From the NCBI GenBank assembly GCA_030390025.1, contig CM059431.1, positions 106,766,001-106,830,000 of the forward strand: a DNA stretch of 64,000 bases. The letters are read 5' to 3'. Made by a program: the position numbers and the translations under genes. Numbering within the stretch: the stretch's first letter is position 1; every line of letters begins with the position of its first letter. The notes under the pieces were generated by a model. The model worked only from the letters and a program-made list of their open reading frames with translations. It searched no databases and was not told the DNA's origin. This DNA is from Squalus acanthias. Taxonomy: Eukaryota. Of this stretch, positions 1 through 59,606 are shown piece by piece.

Positions 1-962
1 GGTGTGACGGGGCGGGTGTGACGGGGCGGGGGTGATGGCGCTGGTGTGATGGGACGGGTGTGATGGGACGGGTGTGAAGGGACGGGTGTGACTGGGCAGG
101 TGTGACGGGGCGGGTGTGATGGGACGGGTGTGACGGGGCGGGTGTGACGGGGCGGGGGTGATGGGGCGGGTGTGACTGGGCAGGTGTGACGGGGCGGGTA
201 TGACGGGATGGGGGTGATGGCGCTGGTGTGATGGGACAGGTGTGATGGGACGGGTGTGATGTGGCGGGTGTGACTGGGTAGGTGTGACGGGGCGGGTATG
301 ATGGGACAGGTGTGAGGGGGCGGGTGTGACGGGGCGGGTGTGACGGGTCGGGTGTGATGGGACGGGTGTGATGTGGCGGTGTGACGAGGCGGTGTGATGG
401 GTCGGGTGTGATGGGTCGGGTGTGATGTGGCGGTGTGAAGAGGCGGTGTGAATGGTCGGGTGTGACGGGACGGGTGTGATGGGACGGGTGTGACTGGGCA
501 GGTGTGACGGGGCGGGTGTGACGGGACGGGTGTGACGGGGCGGGTGTGACTGGGCAGGTGTGACGGGGCGGGTGTGGCGGGACGGATGTGACGGGGCAGG
601 TGTGACGGGACGGGTGTGACGGGACGGGTGTGACGGGGCGGGTGTGACGGGGCGGGTGTGACGGGGCGGGTGTGACGGGGCGGGTGTGATGGGGCGGGTG
701 TGACGGGGCGGGTGTGACGGGGCGGGTGTGAAGGGACGGGCGTGACGGGGCGGGTGTGACGGGGCGGGTGTGACGGGGCGGGTGTGACGGGACGGGTGTG
801 ACGGGACGGGTGTGACGGGGCGGGTGTGACGGGGCGGGTGTGACGGGGCGGGTGTGATGGGACGGGTGTGACGGGGCGGGTGTGATGGGACGGGTGTGAT
901 GTGGCGGTGTGAAGAGGCGGTGTGATGGGACGGGTGTGAAGAGGCGGTGTGAAGAGGCGGTG
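1..962. repeat. G-rich minisatellite, ~15-bp unit GGGCGGGTGTGACGG (continues off the left edge)
   Basis: Roughly 60 tandem copies with variants (GGGAC/GGGGC, GAC/GAT), read directly. Confidence 0.97.
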
Positions 963-10517: not shown

Positions 10518-10866
10518 ATGTGAATTGCACTGAGCCACAATGTAAATGTGCCTTAACTAACATCGGACCGTAATCCAAGTCAGTCGCAGAGCAAGATCTA
10601 ACTACAGGATTCAGCAAATAATCAAAAGTGATCTTTTTTTAAAATCGCTGAATGATTCTTCTTTTCACATGTGTGGCTTGGCAGTGTCTGTGATGATAAC
10701 ACATACCTGTACTTAATCTCCCTGACTGGCTTTGTGCAGTAAGTTATCTGTGTTTGGAGAGAGAGAGAGAGAAAGAAAACACATTTTATGCTGGTTTACG
10801 GCAGTGACAGCAAAAACAACTCTTCCTGATAGATGGCCTTAGTAAATCCAACAACTTTAATTTTGA

Positions 10867-10976
10867 CAATAGCAAAATACTGCGGATGCTGGAAATCAGA
10901 TAATGCTGGAAACACTCAGCATCCGTGGAGGGAGAAATAGAGTTTCTGTTCTGGTCTGTGACCCTTCGTCAGAACT
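10867..10976 (-). mobile_element. Minimal Penelope-derived element (degenerate hammerhead + 3' tail)
   Basis: Matches the PLE 3' end (21988-22087); flanked by a perfect 14-bp direct repeat AACTTTAATTTTGA (10853-10866, 10973-10986). Confidence 0.8.
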
Positions 10977-11063
10977 TTAATTTTGAGATTGCCACTCGTG
11001 AAACCCATATGTTAGGAACAAAAAACAGTACCACAGCATTGCAGCAATACAAAAACTGCTTAG

Positions 11064-15680: not shown

Positions 15681-15972
15681 AAAGTATATTTTGGAGTAAA
15701 AACTGGGAAGAAGTTGAGGGATTTGGTGAGAAGACTTGTGGAGGTAGTTTGACCTTTCTAAAAGGGATGAGCTTGTTGGGCAAAATGAACTCTTAAAACA
15801 TTTAGGCTAGAAATGACCATTGAAGCTATCAATGGGCAGAAGCTGAATGTGACTTTCCTGTGTCTGCTTTTTTGACTGAGGCATTAACCCATGTTAAATA
15901 AACTGATTAACACACCTGTCATTATACAGGACTTAGTAAAGCCATACAAGCACATAAAGTGTCCTGCTAATA

Positions 15973-16068
15973 AAAACAGTAAAATGCTGGAAATACTCAG
16001 CAGGTCAGGCAGCATCTGTGGAGAGAGAAAGAGAGTTAACGTTTCAGGTCGATGACCTTTCATCAGAA
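15973..16068 (-). mobile_element. Minimal Penelope-derived element: hammerhead ribozyme core + 3' tail
   Basis: Reverse complement reads TT CTGATGA A AGGTC ATC GACCT GAAAC GTT AACT...GATGCTGCCTGACCTGCTGAG; TSD GTGTCCTGCTAATA / GCGTCCTGTTAATA. Confidence 0.85.
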
Positions 16069-16974
16069 GCGTCCTGTTAATATCGCCAACAGTCATTTCT
16101 AAGCTTTTATGTTCTTCAGGGTATGTCATTTATGCCGAGAATCTTTAAGTTACGAGCAATTTCCTTGTACGCCTCTATTTTAACACGGCAGTGAGTTTTT
16201 TGCATCAACAAGGGGGCCAAAGTGCCGCTCCAGTTCTTACGAATATTATCGTTTGTAATAGATACTGCAATATTTGATAAAGTACTGGGTTTGTAACTGT
16301 TGTGATTACTGAATTTGTTGTCCTGGCTGCATTGCGAGGTAGTTCGTTCAAAGAACACTCAGCAGGTGCCAAACCAGTAATCACAAAGATGCCACGTTTA
16401 GCAGTTGCCCAACATGGGGCTCCAACCCCACCAGTGAGAGAGACGTTTCACCTGTCACAGTAAAGCACAGCTCACAGGAAGCGGCTTTGTCAGAACAAAG
16501 CTGCTTAGCAATGCGCTGCCTCATTTCATCCTCAACATGTACCTGTGTGTCACCAGTTACAAAGCTGAAATGTACCGCTGTCTCCGTCCGTCAATCACCA
16601 AATGAGTTAAGAATCATAATTAATTTTTTTAATTAATTTTCTAAATTTTCTAAGCGCGGGCGTTTTAATGGTGAAAATCCTCTTACAGTTCTGAAGAGGC
16701 ATTGAGCCTGATTTTCGACCACACATCTGCCCCACCATTGGGCAGGTCGTGCACCTTGCAAATCAATCTGATTGGAGTACTGCTGAACCTGGATGAATTT
16801 CTGTGTGCAACTAATTTACATGTTGTCGACATAAGTAGTGTGAGGTAAGTGCTGGGGGTCTCGGCAGTGGTCCAAGAGGGGAACCTGTGCACTGCGACAA
16901 CTTAAAAGGACAATAATTTTGTTTTGAATGCTGGCAGCAGAACAACTCTCTGGCTGCTGAAGGCACCAGGCACA

Positions 16975-19036: not shown

Positions 19037-21718
19037 GTGACACTGGATAGAGAGTTTGCTCCAAACACTTGCAACCTGCATAAAGCTCAGGTATCTTCCA
19101 AGACTCGGTTTCACAGCCACATTACTTTCCTCAGCAACTGTCTCCGGTTCCGACTTATCCCACGTGGATTCCAACTAAACTTCCACCCTTCGTGTTTCGG
19201 ATCAACCCAGGATTACAAATATCTCCAAGATATTCATCGTTCCTCGAACTACTGCTCTCGCCGCATCTTGAGATCCACGCTCAACGCCATGCGGCGCCAC
19301 ATGAACACTCTCGACCTCTCTCTTCAGCAGCACCGACGCACTCTATCTCAAAGCTGTCCGGGTCCACAGTTCCATTTCATCCTTAGACTCATCCGACGCT
19401 TCAACAAACAACTTTTCTTCTTCCTTTCCGATGTCAAGGATCGCAAGCTTCAACAACTCTCGGACACTAACGCCCCTCCGGAACCTTCTTCCCCTTCACT
19501 TTCCTCTGACCCCCCTTCTCCCAATCTCACCCCCTGCCGCGTTTTCACTATCCCCTCTGACCTTCCCCTCTCTGACTCCGAACGATCAGTCCTCAGCAGA
19601 GGCCTGACCTTCATCCCCTTACGCCCCCATCTCAATGAATTTCGAGCTCGGCACGATGCTGAGCTCTTTTTCCGCCGCCTCCGTCTCCGTGCCCACTTCT
19701 CTGGCCAGGAGTCTTCCCCCCGCACGGCTGACCCTTTCTCCCGCTTTCAGAATTCTTGTTCCACCTGGACCCCTCCCTCTGGCCTCTTACCCTCTCTAGA
19801 TCTTTTCATTGCTAACTGCCGCCGTGACATCGGCCAGCTCAATTTCTCTGCTCCCCTCACTCACTCCAACCTACCTCCCTCTGAACTTGCAGCACTCCAT
19901 TCTCTCCGATCCAACCCTGACATTGTCATCAAACCTGCTGACAAGGGTGGCGCTGTTGTTGTTTGGCGAACCGACCTCTACCTAGCGGAAGTTGAATGCC
20001 AACTCTCTGACACCTCCTTCTACCTCCACCTGGACCATGATCCCACTACTGAACATCAAGCCACCGTGTCCAAGACCGTCACTGACCTCATCTCCTCTGG
20101 AGATCTTCCCCCCACGGCCGCCAACCTCATAGTTCCCCAACCGCGCACAGCCTGCTTCTACCTCCTTCCCAAGATCCACAAACAGGACTGCCCCGGTAGA
20201 CCCATCGTTTCAGCCTGTTCTTGCCCCACGGAACTTATCTCTTCCTATCTCGACTCTATTTTTTCTCCCCTTGTCCAGTCTCTTCCCACCTACATCCGCG
20301 ACTCTTCCGATGCCCTCCGCCATTTTAACAGTTTCCAGTTTCCTGGCCCCAACCGTCTCCTCTTCACTATGGACGTACAATCCCTCTACACCTCCATTCC
20401 CCACCAGGATGGCCTGAGGGCGCTCCGCTTCTTCCTTGAACAGAGGCCCAACCAGTCCCCATCCACCACCACCCTCCTCCGCCTCACATTGAACAACTTC
20501 TCCTTTGACTCTACCCATTTCCTCCAAATTAAAGGTGTTGCTATGGGTACCCGCATGGGTCCTAGCTATGCCTGCCTTTTCGTGGGATATGTGGAACACT
20601 CTTTGTTCCAGTCCTACTCGGGTCCCCTCCCTCACCTCTTTTTCCGGTACATTGATGACTGTATCGGTGCCGTCTCCTGCTCTCGCCCTGAACTAGAACA
20701 TTTCATTAACTATGCTTCCAATTTCCACCCTTCCCTCACCTTCACATGGTCCATCTCCGACTCTTCCCTTCCCTTCCTCGACTTCTCCATCTCCATCTCT
20801 GGGGATAGGTTATTGACTAACATTCACTACAAGCCCACTGACTCCCACAGCTACCTGGACTACACTTCCTCCCACCCCGCCTCCTGTAAGGACTCTATTC
20901 CATTCTCCCAGTTTCTCCGTCTCCGCCGCATCTGCTCTGATGATGCCACCTTCCATACCAGTGCTTCCGACATGTCTTCCTTTTTCCTCAACCGAGGATT
21001 CCCCTCTACCGTGGTCGACACGGCCCTCAACCGTGTCCGTTCTATCTCCCGCACTTCTGCCCTTACCCCTGCCCCTCCCTCCCGGAACCACGATAGGGTT
21101 CCCCTTGTCCTCACCTTTCACCCCACCAGCCTCCACATTCAACAGATCATCCTCCGCCATTTCCGCCACCTCCAGCGTGATCCCACCACCAAACACATCT
21201 TCCCCTCACCTCCCCTTTCAGCATTCCGCAGGGACCGCTCCCTCCGCGACACCCTAGTCCACTCCTCTACCACTCCCAGCACCCTTTCCCCTTCGCCTGG
21301 CACCTTCCCGTGCACGCGCAGGAGATGCAACACATGCCCTTACACCTCCCCTGTTCCCACTGTCCAGGGCCCCAAACACCCCTTCCAGGTGAAACAGCGA
21401 TTTACTTGTACTTCCTGCAATTTAGTATACTGTATTCGCTGCTCACGATGTGGTCTCCTCTACATTGGGGAGACCAAACGCAGATTGGGTGACCGCTTTG
21501 CGGAACACCTCCGTTCAGTCCGTAAGGGGGACCCCGAGCTCCCGGTGGCCTGTCACTTTAATTCACCGCTTCACTCCCACTCTGACCTCACCGTCCTCGG
21601 CCTATTACACTGTTCCACGGAAGCGCAGCGTAAGCTCGAGGAACAGCACCTCATCTTTCGTTTAGGCACGCTACAGCCCTCTGGACTCAATATCGAGTTC
21701 AACAATTTTAGATCATAA
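19037..21718 (+). CDS. Penelope-like reverse transcriptase / GIY-YIG endonuclease polyprotein (element-derived part starts ~19091; the GTG start lies in flanking DNA)
   Basis: IKPADKGG, FYLLPKIHK...GRPIVS, MDVQSLYTSIP, GVAMGTRMGP, FRYIDD, Cys linker CTRRRCNTC, NLVYCIRC..CGLLYIGET.R.L..RF.EH, GLN; uninterrupted frame. Confidence 0.93.
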   Translation: MTLDREFAPNTCNLHKAQVSSKTRFHSHITFLSNCLRFRLIPRGFQLNFHPSCFGSTQDYKYLQDIHRSSNYCSRRILRSTLNAMRRHMNTLDLSLQQHRRTLSQSCPGPQFHFILRLIRRFNKQLFFFLSDVKDRKLQQLSDTNAPPEPSSPSLSSDPPSPNLTPCRVFTIPSDLPLSDSERSVLSRGLTFIPLRPHLNEFRARHDAELFFRRLRLRAHFSGQESSPRTADPFSRFQNSCSTWTPPSGLLPSLDLFIANCRRDIGQLNFSAPLTHSNLPPSELAALHSLRSNPDIVIKPADKGGAVVVWRTDLYLAEVECQLSDTSFYLHLDHDPTTEHQATVSKTVTDLISSGDLPPTAANLIVPQPRTACFYLLPKIHKQDCPGRPIVSACSCPTELISSYLDSIFSPLVQSLPTYIRDSSDALRHFNSFQFPGPNRLLFTMDVQSLYTSIPHQDGLRALRFFLEQRPNQSPSTTTLLRLTLNNFSFDSTHFLQIKGVAMGTRMGPSYACLFVGYVEHSLFQSYSGPLPHLFFRYIDDCIGAVSCSRPELEHFINYASNFHPSLTFTWSISDSSLPFLDFSISISGDRLLTNIHYKPTDSHSYLDYTSSHPASCKDSIPFSQFLRLRRICSDDATFHTSASDMSSFFLNRGFPSTVVDTALNRVRSISRTSALTPAPPSRNHDRVPLVLTFHPTSLHIQQIILRHFRHLQRDPTTKHIFPSPPLSAFRRDRSLRDTLVHSSTTPSTLSPSPGTFPCTRRRCNTCPYTSPVPTVQGPKHPFQVKQRFTCTSCNLVYCIRCSRCGLLYIGETKRRLGDRFAEHLRSVRKGDPELPVACHFNSPLHSHSDLTVLGLLHCSTEAQRKLEEQHLIFRLGTLQPSGLNIEFNNFRS

Positions 21719-22087
21719 CCTCAGCTCCAATCACATTTATATTTTATTTTTTCCATCCTTTTATTTGCCCCCCCCCCCACCTTTTTTTTCCTCCTAGAAG
21801 CTGGCAGCTTTCCTTCATTCTACCAGTGGATTTCACACTTCTTTCAGCCATAATCTGTCACATTAACACCACCTCTAGCCTTGCATATCTCTTAATGTCT
21901 CTTCATCTCCCCCTTTGTTCTTTTATCCCCTCCCCCTTTTCCCAGCTTTACTCTGGCCTTAAATCTATTTGATTTCCGGCTCTTCACAGTTCTGACGAAA
22001 GGTCATCGACCTGAAACGTTAACTCTCTTTCTCTCTCCATGGATGCTGCCTGGCCTGCTGAGTTTTTCCAGCGTTTTCTGTTGTTAT
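19090..22087 (+). mobile_element. Penelope-like retroelement (Neptune type), slightly 5' truncated
   Basis: RT + GIY-YIG ORF, pyrimidine-rich 3' UTR, hammerhead motif; 13-bp TSD TGCATAAAGCTCA at 19077-19089 and 22088-22100. Confidence 0.95.
21988..22024 (+). ncRNA. Minimal type I hammerhead ribozyme in the Penelope 3' end
   Basis: AGTT-CTGACGA-A-AGGTC-ATC-GACCT-GAAAC-GTT-AACT: stem I AGTT/AACT, core CUGANGA and GAAA, 5-bp stem II, palindromic ACGT stem III, GUU cleavage triplet. Confidence 0.82.
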
Positions 22088-23479
22088 TGCATAAAGCTCA
22101 ATCTGTGTTCCAAATGCAATAAGCAACAACTTCTGAGCATGGAAAGTAAAAAAAACTGTGAATTGGGAGCTTTTATAGCACATTTCAAGCTGTCAAGTAA
22201 TCAGCTGATTCAATGGCCATTCATCTCCTGCCTCAGCTTAACAGACATGATCCCTGAGCAGCGAGGACCCCAGAAGGGGGAGGGGGGGGGGGTGGGTGGC
22301 GAGCATGTAAAGTCAAAAGGTAAACTAAAATGTATTCTTAATGATGTCTAAACAAGGTCATAATGAGCTTAATTGGGTCCCGCACCGCTGCGCGTAGGGT
22401 CTGCTCAGCGCTGAAAGACCCGACATTGGGAAAGGCACGTGGTGACGGGTTGGCAGTGGGGTCCCGCCCCGTTGTGAAAAAAAACAACTTTCCCACACGA
22501 CCCGCCACCGATTCCACCCGCTGACCCCCCGGAAAATTCCAGCCGTTGGTTGAGGGATAAATATTGGCCAGGACACCAGGGATAACTCCCCTGCTCTTCT
22601 TCAAAATAGTGCCATGGGATCTTTTACATCTACCTGAAAGGGTATACTTCATCTATGGTATAAGTTTCATCATTGTACTGTATTATCATGCTGCTATTTC
22701 TTTTTGCTTAGATATATTTCTTATCTGTTCATAAATCCAAACTTGTAATTTAGCCTTTATAATATGGTACAATTTGGGCGGTCCAAATATTTGGCAGTGA
22801 ATGATTTGCCGTGATTCAGGATTATTATTTTTTTAGATTTGAGCTGCTCCAACCCATATACCACCCAAAGAATGAATACATAAGGGACTTGGTTGGTTTG
22901 TGAAAGCTGCACTCTAAGCCATGAATACAAGAAAGGATTTGGGAGAAAAGCCAGAACTCTTACAGCAGTGGGTGAGTCATAGTTTGTAGGCGAGGAGAAG
23001 GAGGTGCTGGTGCCAGAGGAGGAGCAGGAACCCCCCTGCCCTGATGGCCTCATTGGTACCTTCTCAATGACCTGTTCTACATTGAGAAAACCCACTGGCA
23101 CAGTGAAATTGGGCCACCCAAATTGTTGGCTTTGATCAACAATGCATCAGTCACTTGCTGGATACATCTGTGGGCAGAAAGTTAGATGATTCTGTTGACC
23201 TCCCCCATGCCAGCATGAAAGGACAGGAAGAAATGAATGTTGAGTGTGGGCAGTGACTTTGACTGTCACTCTCAGGGCCTTCCCTGCGGTAGACACTGGC
23301 TGCAGATTGCCTTGCAGCAGATGACAAGGCATTGCACCTGACTCCTTGCTCACCCAGAACTTATAGAGGCAGTAGATATGGGCTTGTATGCTCTGGCTGA
23401 TGGCATAATAGCTGATGCAGCCAATCCAAAATTTGGTGCCATCTGATTTCCCTGTATATCTTCCCTGTATATCTGTATA

Positions 23480-39585: not shown

Positions 39586-40727
39586 GTTTGCCTTGTCCTT
39601 TTGCCTTGCACCATCATCCCTTTTGTCTCTTAATCTCTCCTGCCCTCCATCCTATCACAGACCTTCCCTTTTGTTCTTTCTTCCCCTCCCCCCTCTCCCT
39701 GCCCCTACACTTGCTAAAAAACCTTTTACATCTCCAACTTTTTCCAGTTCTGATGAAGGGTCATCGACCTGAAACATTGGGGCGATTTTCCCAGCCCTGG
39801 GAAGGCGGGTATGGAGGCGGGACAACCGGCAAAATGGCAGAAACTGGGAGCGGGTACCCATCCCGCCCCCAACCCGCCTCTGTGCCATCTTCCCAGGAGG
39901 CGGGTACCCGACCAGCATCGGGTCCCGTCTCCTCGAGGCGGGAAGGGGATTAGTGCCAATTAACTGCCTGTTAACAGCTAGTTAACAGAAAGTTTTTTGG
40001 CTAATCCCTATTTTGAGCCCTAAAGTGTGGGCTTCCCGACGGCTCCGACCCTCGCCAGGGTAAGCGAGGTGAGCCGTGGGTCTGCGGGGGTCGGAGAGGA
40101 CAAAATTTCCAGTGTGCAGGTGAGTGATGAGTGCAAGTGTGGAGAGGTAAGTGTGTGAGGTGAGTCTAAAGTGTTTTAATAAGATTACTTACCTTTGCTT
40201 CTTCCTCCAGGCTTCATCCCTTTAGGCTGTGGAGCTGCCTCATCTCACCGGCAGAGAAAGCAGAATGGCCGTTGCATTCTTAAATGCTGCAGCCTTCTGC
40301 TTTCTGCTCAGGAAAGCTTTCTAAGTAAGCCTGTGTCCAAAGTCTCAACTTAGAAGATAGATTGTCAGTGTTTGACAGCTTCACAGAGCTGTCAAACGAT
40401 GACAATTCATCTGTCAAAAAATCTTGACAGATGAAACGTCATACGCTGACGTCATCTGTCACCAGCTTTCCCTTAATTGGCCGGCTAAGCCCGCTGGGCG
40501 GGCTTAACAAGGCCAATCAAGGGAAAATAGCGTGGGTTGGCCGAACGTCGATGGAGGCGGGACTAAAACCCGACAAGCAGCTTTCCCGCCTCCATCACGT
40601 CCCCATTGATAAAATCAGCCCCGTTAACTCTGTTTCTCTCTCTACAGATGCTGCCTGACCTGTTGAGTATTTCCAGCATTTTCTGTTTTTATTTTAGATT
40701 TCCAGCATCCGCAGTATTTTGCTTTTG
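39586..40727 (+). mobile_element. Penelope 3' fragment with hammerhead, inserted in a CR1 tail and itself split by a MITE
   Basis: Similar to the PLE 3' UTR; TSD TAGAAGGATAT at 39575-39585 and 40728-40738. Confidence 0.85.
39779..40622. mobile_element. MITE, Harbinger-like (second copy at 63254-64000)
   Basis: TIR GGGGCGATTTT / AAAATCAGCCCC; 3-bp flanks ATT/GTT; high similarity to the copy at the window end. Confidence 0.88.
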
Positions 40728-58206: not shown

Positions 58207-59606
58207 GGGCCCGATTTTAACTTCCACCACCTGGGGGATACCAGGCGGCGGGGAGGGGAGTGGGTAGTTCAAATGAGGGCAGTCACTTAACCCCCCAGCT
58301 CCCCTCCCCTGTGATCCTGCTGCCATCCCGTCCAGTTGCGCTATCAACCTGCTCACTGGAACAGTATGCCTGCTCCAAGGTGGCGGGGCCCTGGTTAAGT
58401 ATGCTGATAGGGGCCTGTCATTTCAGGTGGAGGCCTGAGCGAGGGAGCAGTGACGGCTTCACCGTCAGGCCAGATCTGTCGGAAGGGGGATCATTTATTT
58501 AAGATGTCCTTGTGGGCCAGAAGGAGCCGGAGTGCCATGGACCTCCCCTACCACCATCTTCCCACTCTCCTCTCCCAACCCTGATTGTATCCAGAACCCC
58601 CCTCCCCCATCACACCCTGAGCCCACCTCCCCCATTACACCCCTCCCCCGATCACACCCCAAGCCCCCTCTCCTTCCCGGGATCACATCCGAGACCCTCC
58701 CCCCAATCATACCCTGATCCCCCCTCCCCTGATCGCACCCCTCCCCCCCACCCCCTCCCCCTACCCCGATCACACCCCGAGTCTCCCTCCCCGGATCACC
58801 CCGAGCCCCCCTCCCCCGTGCCCCCTCCCCCCGAGCCTCCCTCCTCCAAGCCCCCCTCCCCCGTGTCCCCTCCCCTGATCACACCCCAAGGGCCCCTCCC
58901 CCGAGGTTCTCTCCCCTGAGACCCCCTCCCCGATCACACCCTAACCGAGACCCCCTCCCCAAGCCCCCTCCCCCGAGACCCCCTCCCCGATCACACCCTG
59001 AGCCCCTCCCCTCCTCCATGCCCCCCTCCCCCGTGGTTCCCTCCCCCGAGCCCTCCTGCCCGATTGCACCCTCCCCTGCGACCCCCTCCCCCGATCACAC
59101 CCTCCCCCGAGAACCCCTCCCCGAGACCTCCTCCCCCGAGCCCGTCCCCCTTGATCACGTCTGGACCCCATCCCCCACCGACTTATCTGACCTCCTGCCG
59201 CCCGAACTCCTCGCTCCCCACAGCTGGCCAGGTAGTGGATCTTTTTTATTAAAATTCGTTTATGGGATGTGTGCATCGCTGGCAAGGCCAGAATTTATTG
59301 CTCATCCCTAGTTGCCCTCGAGAAGGTGGTGGTGAGCCGCCTTCTTGAACCGCTGCAGTCCGTGTGGTGAAGGTACTCCCACAGTGCTGTTCGGGGGGGA
59401 GTTCCAGGATTTTGACCCAGCGACGATGAAGGATCGGCGATCTAGCTGTGTTCGAGTGGCACTTGGAGAACGGTTATGGTAACGAGGCCTTGCTGTTAAG
59501 ATCGGATGGTGTTCCACATCCCCAGGTTCACTGCCCACTTCGGGGCTCTCATGCACCATACCCGTGCCCCCCCCCACCCGCCCCCGCCCCCTTTAAAATC
59601 GGGGCC
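58207..59606. mobile_element. MITE with C-rich degenerate repeat interior and a nested LINE tail (~59240-59443)
   Basis: TIR GGGCCCGATTTTAA / TTAAAATCGGGGCC. Confidence 0.78.

Follow-up and report, generated by a model that had tools for sequence, protein, structure and literature searches.

A 96-bp insert in a 64-kb window of the Squalus acanthias genome (the whole stretch of DNA analysed here) raises the question of whether a hammerhead ribozyme and the tail of a Penelope-like element (PLE) spread as a discrete mobile unit, or whether such short copies are by-products of a longer element whose copying ends at the ribozyme. The insert itself is real: it lies at 15973..16068 on the minus strand between two 14-mers, with the coordinates and letters given in the preliminary description, and its start two bases before CTGATGA is confirmed from the letters. 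With C3 of the hammerhead core (the C of CUGA) set as position 0, it runs from -2 to the short-tail end at +97. The target-site duplication consists of GTGTCCTGCTAATA (15959..15972) on the 3' side of the unit and GCGTCCTGTTAATA (16069..16082) on its 5' side; these match at 12 of 14 positions, and in the 64-kb window the left 14-mer is matched at 12/14 or better at just these two sites. The last four nucleotides (minus strand) of the 15959..15972 copy overlap the TATT end of the element, and the unit shares a TT microhomology with the 16069..16082 copy. Because the first TT and the last TATT of the unit are common to the target, the duplication lengthens to 16 nt (14/16), and the shared TT means that the 5' end of the insert may be placed anywhere from -2 to 0.

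The unit consists of two parts. A minimal type-I hammerhead motif (16034..16068, minus strand), recognised from sequence and with the architecture given in the accessible text of PMC4209133, comprises the CUGAUGA core (C3 = 16066), an extra A, stem II (AGGUC/GACCU) and GAAAC-GUU, with cleavage predicted between 16038 and 16037. The 5' strand of its stem I is cut to 2 nt: two of the four bases of AGTT are present and the AG is missing, so the hammerhead in this unit is incomplete. The PLE 3' segment follows (15969..16033, minus strand) and ends at the short-tail terminus (+97), the first of the two seen in the family. Over 100 nt, the insert is 92% identical to the 3' end of an ORF-bearing copy in the same window; it is a 5'-truncated copy, with a subfamily-A-type haplotype, of an abundant Penelope-like (Neptune-type) family.

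In the 3.7-Gb Squalus acanthias genome, the tail 38-mer has 15,775 exact matches and a degenerate hammerhead 29-mer (+12..+40) has 35,253, and the family comprises at least 35,000 copies. The full unit, as seen in ORF-start copies, runs from a hammerhead and tail through a 5' UTR, an ATG near +168, a 916-aa frame and a 3' UTR to a second hammerhead; the ATG-started 916-aa frame was present in 4/4 other copies checked, and of 89 copies holding the ORF start, 48 extend as far as the upstream hammerhead. The 3' ends fall at two termini, about +97 (short tail) and about +131 (long tail). Pfam matches of the ORF protein are weak, both being under the curated cut-offs (RVT_1, E=8e-6; GIY-YIG, E=4e-4), and YIDD and VYCI..YIGET motifs are visible, with a Cys-rich linker (CTRRRCNTC) upstream of the nuclease. 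The combination of a reverse transcriptase (RT), a C-terminal GIY-YIG domain and the Cys-rich linker thus identifies an EN+ PLE, presumably of Neptune type given the linker and the vertebrate host. This linker feature is ascribed to Neptune and Nematis in the accessible text of PMC8557442. Further EN+ PLE traits are the single ORF carrying both domains, partial tandems that form pLTRs, inverted 5' copies and an optional tail. The hammerhead of the family is of the minimal type-I kind, with a C-G pair at 15.2-16.2 and a 4-bp stem I formed by AGUU (-4..-1) and AACU (+29..+32); an Rfam scan of the window returned two chance hits and no hammerhead. In a young branch of subfamily B (L211-L229), GUC replaces GUU at the predicted cleavage triplet (12/225 motif matches). 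Truncated subfamily-B copies (L216-L218, C1 6.98-7.13 Mb) are spaced ~1.7 kb apart within a ~35-bp satellite, and the copies clustered at C1 7.0-7.1 Mb, considered as candidate retrozyme arrays, were rejected as satellite duplications.

Several other copies occur in the window. For the insert at 10867..10976 (minus strand, -4/0 to the long-tail end), independence and a nearly identical start hold as proposed earlier, but it represents a different, more diverged variant with a long tail and a degenerate hammerhead, the core of which is broken (GAAAC/GTT). Its 14-bp duplication is perfect (10853-10866 / 10973-10986), with AGTT shared. The ORF-bearing copy (19090..22087, plus strand) is a 5'-truncated member of subfamily B with a 3' UTR, a complete minimal hammerhead (21988-22024), a short tail and a 13/13 duplication (19077-19089 / 22088-22100). 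Its open frame (19091-21718, 875 aa) encodes RT and GIY-YIG without an ATG; truncation has removed the 5' pLTR together with the start codon and the first ~35 codons, and five residues are deleted within the RT. Another short copy (40622..40727, plus strand) begins inside the hammerhead at +25 and has a long tail, and a fragment (39663..39778, plus strand) retains 3' UTR and the 5' half of the hammerhead with no tail. The 96-bp unit, the 10867-10976 copy and the ORF copy have three different haplotypes, the tail of the ORF copy being of subfamily B and that of the 96-bp unit of A type. With these three haplotypes and an ORF copy that is 5'-truncated and carries an RT deletion, the suggested autonomous/non-autonomous system within one window finds no support; the ORF copy is not autonomous as it stands, nor is it the parent of the 96-bp unit. 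Tandem repeats also occur in the window (1-700, 31403 onward and 58566-59150), with periods of ~14, 38 and 15-25 bp.

The distribution of 5' ends was obtained from stretches fetched round tail-, hammerhead- and ORF-selected matches, mostly on contig C1 with some on C2-C7. Copy arms were mapped against real long copies (481 anchors, 472 mapped, 428 after de-duplication), and 276 arms were kept after dropping arms chosen as long, second-pass arms and edge arms. In this own-genome sample, 74 of the 193 arms reaching +2 stop at -6..+2, a 9-nt wall (4.3%/nt), against 0.1-0.24%/nt (about 0.2%/nt) in the upstream bins from -16 to -344; the rate at the wall is ~20 times higher, and the background rate predicts 3.5 stops there. 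The counts from -6 to +2 are, in order, 4, 12, 13, 15, 9, 6, 6, 6 and 3, which gives a 9-nt peak with its mode at -3 to -5, blurred by 1-5-nt microhomology; at -15..-7, 12/119 arms stop. The wall is present in arms without a close inverted partner (47/152) and in each subfamily (A0, 57/140; A1, 4/13; B, 12/33). The histogram of 5' breakpoints proposed in the preliminary description thus gives a sharp excess at the 5' edge of the ribozyme and excludes smooth truncation. No pile-up was found at the predicted cleavage site, where 2/245 arms reaching +32 stop (one each at +28 and +29), so self-cleavage does not set the copy ends; four arms stop at +25. Genome-wide, the 29-mer count falls from that of +12..+40 to 33,090 at +2..+30 (-6%) and from there to 24,540 at -8..+20 (-26%), which is a drop in the same direction as in the sample and smaller, between patterns that are not equivalent in degeneracy. 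By extrapolation, the short-copy class is on the order of 10,000 arms.

Duplications of 9-18 bp were found round 18/56 solo hotspot copies, a set that takes in some arms from biased loci, and round 0/56 at a shifted position; 14 of these 18 overlap the element by 1-5 nt. The flanks of 45 stand-alone hotspot copies match one another at best at 15-19/40 (15-21 when shuffled) and match long-copy UTRs at 12-21/40, whereas 84/86 long copies reach at least 27. The hotspot flanks are therefore unrelated, which leaves no hidden subfamily and no shared upstream exon.

The same fold is met again in the 5' pLTR of ORF-bearing copies, and here 5/48 stop (Fisher p=1.3e-4; 2/91 copies did not fit and were left out of this count). 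This is ~4x the background of ~1.3 expected stops (p about 0.01) and well below the 38% at the wall; the other 43/48 continue further upstream. Among those 43, seven 5' ends (L099, L104, L109, L110, L116, L180 and L182) cluster at -22..-33, possibly marking a second, upstream RNA start.

Another PLE family, with a protein 33-38% identical, was found in the same loci (e.g. L046:7900, L039:1931, L192:1545) and is very abundant (44,875 and 21,784 exact tail 35-mers). Every stem I pair of its hammerhead is changed (UCAC/GUGA), the 15.2-16.2 pair is G-C, the triplet is CUU, stem II is variable, and two tail lengths occur. With 84/86 arms placed, a wall appears in this family as well: 28/73 arms stop at -9..+2, compared with about 0.25%/nt elsewhere, the stops making up 9/52 solo and 19/21 paired arms. 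Eight copies end at exactly -7, and in 7/8 the base before A(-7) is a G, against C or T in the template; five of these seven Gs could be supplied by the partner arm and one by the target duplication.

The fetched loci contain 54 inverted pairs (e.g. L006, L016, L026, L122). In 42/43 classifiable cases, a head-to-head insertion combines an arm with the short tail and an arm with the long tail, 11 more being unclassifiable. A single 9-17-bp target duplication surrounds 30/46 of them. Inverted insertions are single events, and the pairing suggests that each RT start site is used once for priming in an event. Arm lengths within one insertion are correlated (46 pairs, rho 0.45, p=0.002), with 35 short-short, 5 long-long and 6 mixed pairs.

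Could the short copies then form a discrete non-autonomous mini-element, a ribozyme SINE with its own masters mobilised in trans by the PLE protein, as had been suggested from the 96-bp insert? We consider this unlikely. Many short copies do stand alone with true duplications (18/56, against 0/56 in the control), and non-autonomous PLE derivatives are described in the accessible parts of PMC8557442 and bioRxiv 10.64898/2026.07.22.740005. Against a family with its own lineage, at least five haplotype classes are common to short and long copies, the 5' ends scatter across 9 nt, the 45 solo short copies end at either terminus (21 short, 21 long and 3 other), and of the 74 hotspot arms 29 belong to inverted insertions as one of the two halves, the other 45 being solo. 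No private haplotype emerged: among 172 unbiased arms, the nearest-neighbour haplotype share is 0.390 against 0.387 when shuffled (46/100 shuffles as high), in a test limited in resolution by its 95-nt length. When the full set (302) is taken, the site differences trace to oversampled long B copies. Short masters freshly derived from each subfamily may be compatible with this 95-nt test.

For the cause of the wall, the explanation we prefer, giving it about an even chance, is run-off: reverse transcription would begin within the tail and end where its template ends, on an RNA whose 5' terminus is at stem I. The autonomous PLE protein would nick AT-rich DNA and prime at +97 or +131. The template would be an RNA that has not been cleaved, in the simplest case the 5' pLTR part of a transcript of the element itself, and its 5' terminus would arise either because transcription starts immediately upstream of stem I or because a nuclease trims the RNA back to the fold, where protein is bound. 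Microhomology would then link the cDNA end to the target, leaving a ragged wall, and the short copies would be by-products remade from every active subfamily, with no lineage of their own. The wall in all subfamilies and in the second family, the shared haplotypes of short and long copies and the lack of a peak at the cleavage site are consistent with run-off, and so is the G before A(-7) in the second family, six of the seven Gs having a possible other source. The weaker second-pass stop also favours a template end, because a stop caused by the sequence alone should recur at the second encounter, and the correlated arm lengths fit since one template end would limit both arms, although simultaneous release of two polymerases could produce the same correlation. 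In the accessible text on a Poseidon PLE, an uncleaved RNA that extends across the pLTR-ORF junction is primed internally at two sites in vitro (PMC11167929), and Penelope transcription is reported to start within the pLTR (PMC2377424). On the other side, a main start at stem I should cap most full-length copies and 43/48 pass it; to keep run-off, one must also suppose that most long copies derive from tandem or read-through RNA. In D. virilis, the Penelope start does not coincide with helix I but is placed ~120 nt upstream of it (PMC4209133, PMC2377424, accessible parts), the 26% genome-wide 29-mer drop across the wall is less than the sample suggests, and the first family has no excess of G before the junction as a cap signature (18/74 vs 11/68 and 16/55).

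The preliminary description had raised an RT stop at the 5' edge of the ribozyme; the hotspot stood as a pattern, while the stop as its cause is a rival to run-off, which we put higher. Such termination, a possible though less than probable cause, would release the enzyme from a long template just after it has copied the hammerhead, through a nascent-cDNA hairpin (-4..+32) combined with a weak dA:rU hybrid on the upstream pyrimidine tract, or through a bound protein. In both families, the sequences of which are unrelated, the stop position does follow the fold and a pyrimidine-rich tract lies upstream, the monomer is predicted to fold more stably as one hairpin from -4 to +32 (-9.2 kcal/mol) than as the hammerhead (+0.4 kcal/mol), and a weak excess persists on the second pass. 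Yet the stop is about four times weaker when the same sequence is met again, the RNA fold would already be unwound when RT meets the 5' strand of stem I, subfamily B has less U upstream and an equal stop rate, and arm lengths are correlated. Very unlikely, in our judgement, is an origin of the short copies from ribozyme-cleaved or circular RNA, in the manner of retrozymes, or from RNA spliced at CAG|TT before the core. The conserved minimal hammerhead, the canonical GUC triplet of one subfamily, the polypyrimidine-CAG at -3 in the first family and a Penelope intron ending at helix I (PMC4209133, accessible text) would accord with it; the near-absence of ends at +28/+29, the 45 solo flanks that share nothing and hence no common upstream exon, the wall without an AG in the second family and the lack of short-unit tandem arrays in the sample all speak against it. 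Ordinary smooth 5' truncation, or alignment of a conserved ribozyme against the wrong upstream UTR, is almost certainly not the answer: truncation outside the peak is smooth at about 0.2%/nt, but 74 stops stand against 3.5 expected, the hotspot flanks match neither each other nor long-copy UTRs, and the duplications abut the junction.

Two observations near the wall were given no weight. The sequence at the wall resembles the initiator consensus, as CCAGTTC in the first family and YYACTTC in the second, and such motifs are common in pyrimidine tracts. Contigs over a pLTR-ORF junction (four runs, three guessed to be RNA) have their highest depth at the hammerhead and tail; these contigs cannot give starts, strand or level, and the upstream UTR is subfamily-specific. 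They list no joint of a unit-length linear or circular RNA at the cleavage site, although contigs cannot show absence.

A wider reading, which we offer as speculation and think rather improbable, is that the hammerhead and tail of PLEs together form a self-contained module, 100-135 nt long and capped, for both transcription and priming, emitted by any pLTR, including short copies, and copied in trans by the PLE protein as a many-master ribozyme SINE. Run-off cDNA would then be an intermediate resembling strong-stop DNA, which on transfer to the 3' pLTR would give rise to long and tandem copies, and a protein dimer would prime one short-tail and one long-tail cDNA per insertion.

The element class is already known, as the following comparison, drawn from the accessible parts of the cited papers, indicates. 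The family resembles Neptune-type EN+ PLEs (PMC4209133, PMC8557442) in its RT with C-terminal GIY-YIG, Cys-rich linker, pLTR-forming partial tandems, inverted 5' copies, optional 34-nt tail, minimal hammerhead, extra nucleotide before stem II, palindromic 15.2-16.2 pair and many single dispersed motifs in truncated copies, whereas the 10.1-11.1 pair is A-U or G-U here and G-C there. Cervera & De la Pena (2014, PMC4209133) described minimal hammerheads within pLTRs, for the most part as lone motifs in truncated PLEs, Craig et al. (2021, PMC8557442) described inverted copies, tails that are often present at just one end and non-autonomous Chlamys elements, and solo pLTRs and microhomology junctions are mentioned in PMC3846280. 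Truncation is frequent in PMC4209133 and PMC8557442, but their accessible text reports no breakpoint peak at the hammerhead 5' edge, and no published report of such a peak was found in a search of mainly open-access papers, so that prior notice is possible; the tables of preprint 10.64898/2026.07.22.740005 may include these families. The two-family wall and the short-plus-long pairing are real and apparently undescribed.

Two internal RT starts that define the tail, cutting and extension of both DNA strands, AT-rich (ATT) targets and an uncleaved RNA template are shared with Poseidon PAc of Anolis (Frangieh et al. 2024, PMC11167929), the insertion of which does not need hammerhead cleavage. 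Unlike in PAc, where the ATG lies in stem II, it lies ~168 nt after C3 here, and the short-plus-long arm rule (42/43) is sharper than in PAc in vitro, where start sites are equal between strands (PMC11167929). Non-LTR retrozymes (Cervera & De la Pena 2020, PMC7229834; Li et al. 2026, 10.64898/2026.07.22.740005) are likewise non-coding, hammerhead-bearing, pLTR-related and dispersed as monomers with long target duplications. They form tandem repeats with canonical type-I hammerheads and unit-length circles, whereas the units here are single or head-to-head, with a minimal, often clipped hammerhead and ends unrelated to the cleavage site; head-to-tail tandem hammerhead units, the mark of a retrozyme, were found in none of the 74 short copies.

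These results touch on the role of the PLE hammerhead and on the origin of pLTRs and inverted ends. Copy ends in two families mark the 5' boundary of the ribozyme and not its cleavage site, which provides a sharp, testable landmark, and the wall and the pairing point to a fold that serves as the 5' module of the RNA or as a handle for protein, and not as a place where the template is processed. An RNA end or an RT stop is predicted within one 9-nt window. For annotation, 100-135-bp repeats of this sort can mimic a SINE family without being one. The tail (22013-22075; 16045-15969) also resembles a 3' splice site, with a pyrimidine tract and CAG followed by ATG, and the long tail adds two further acceptors (TTTCAG/CCGCAG), so that inserts could be exonised.
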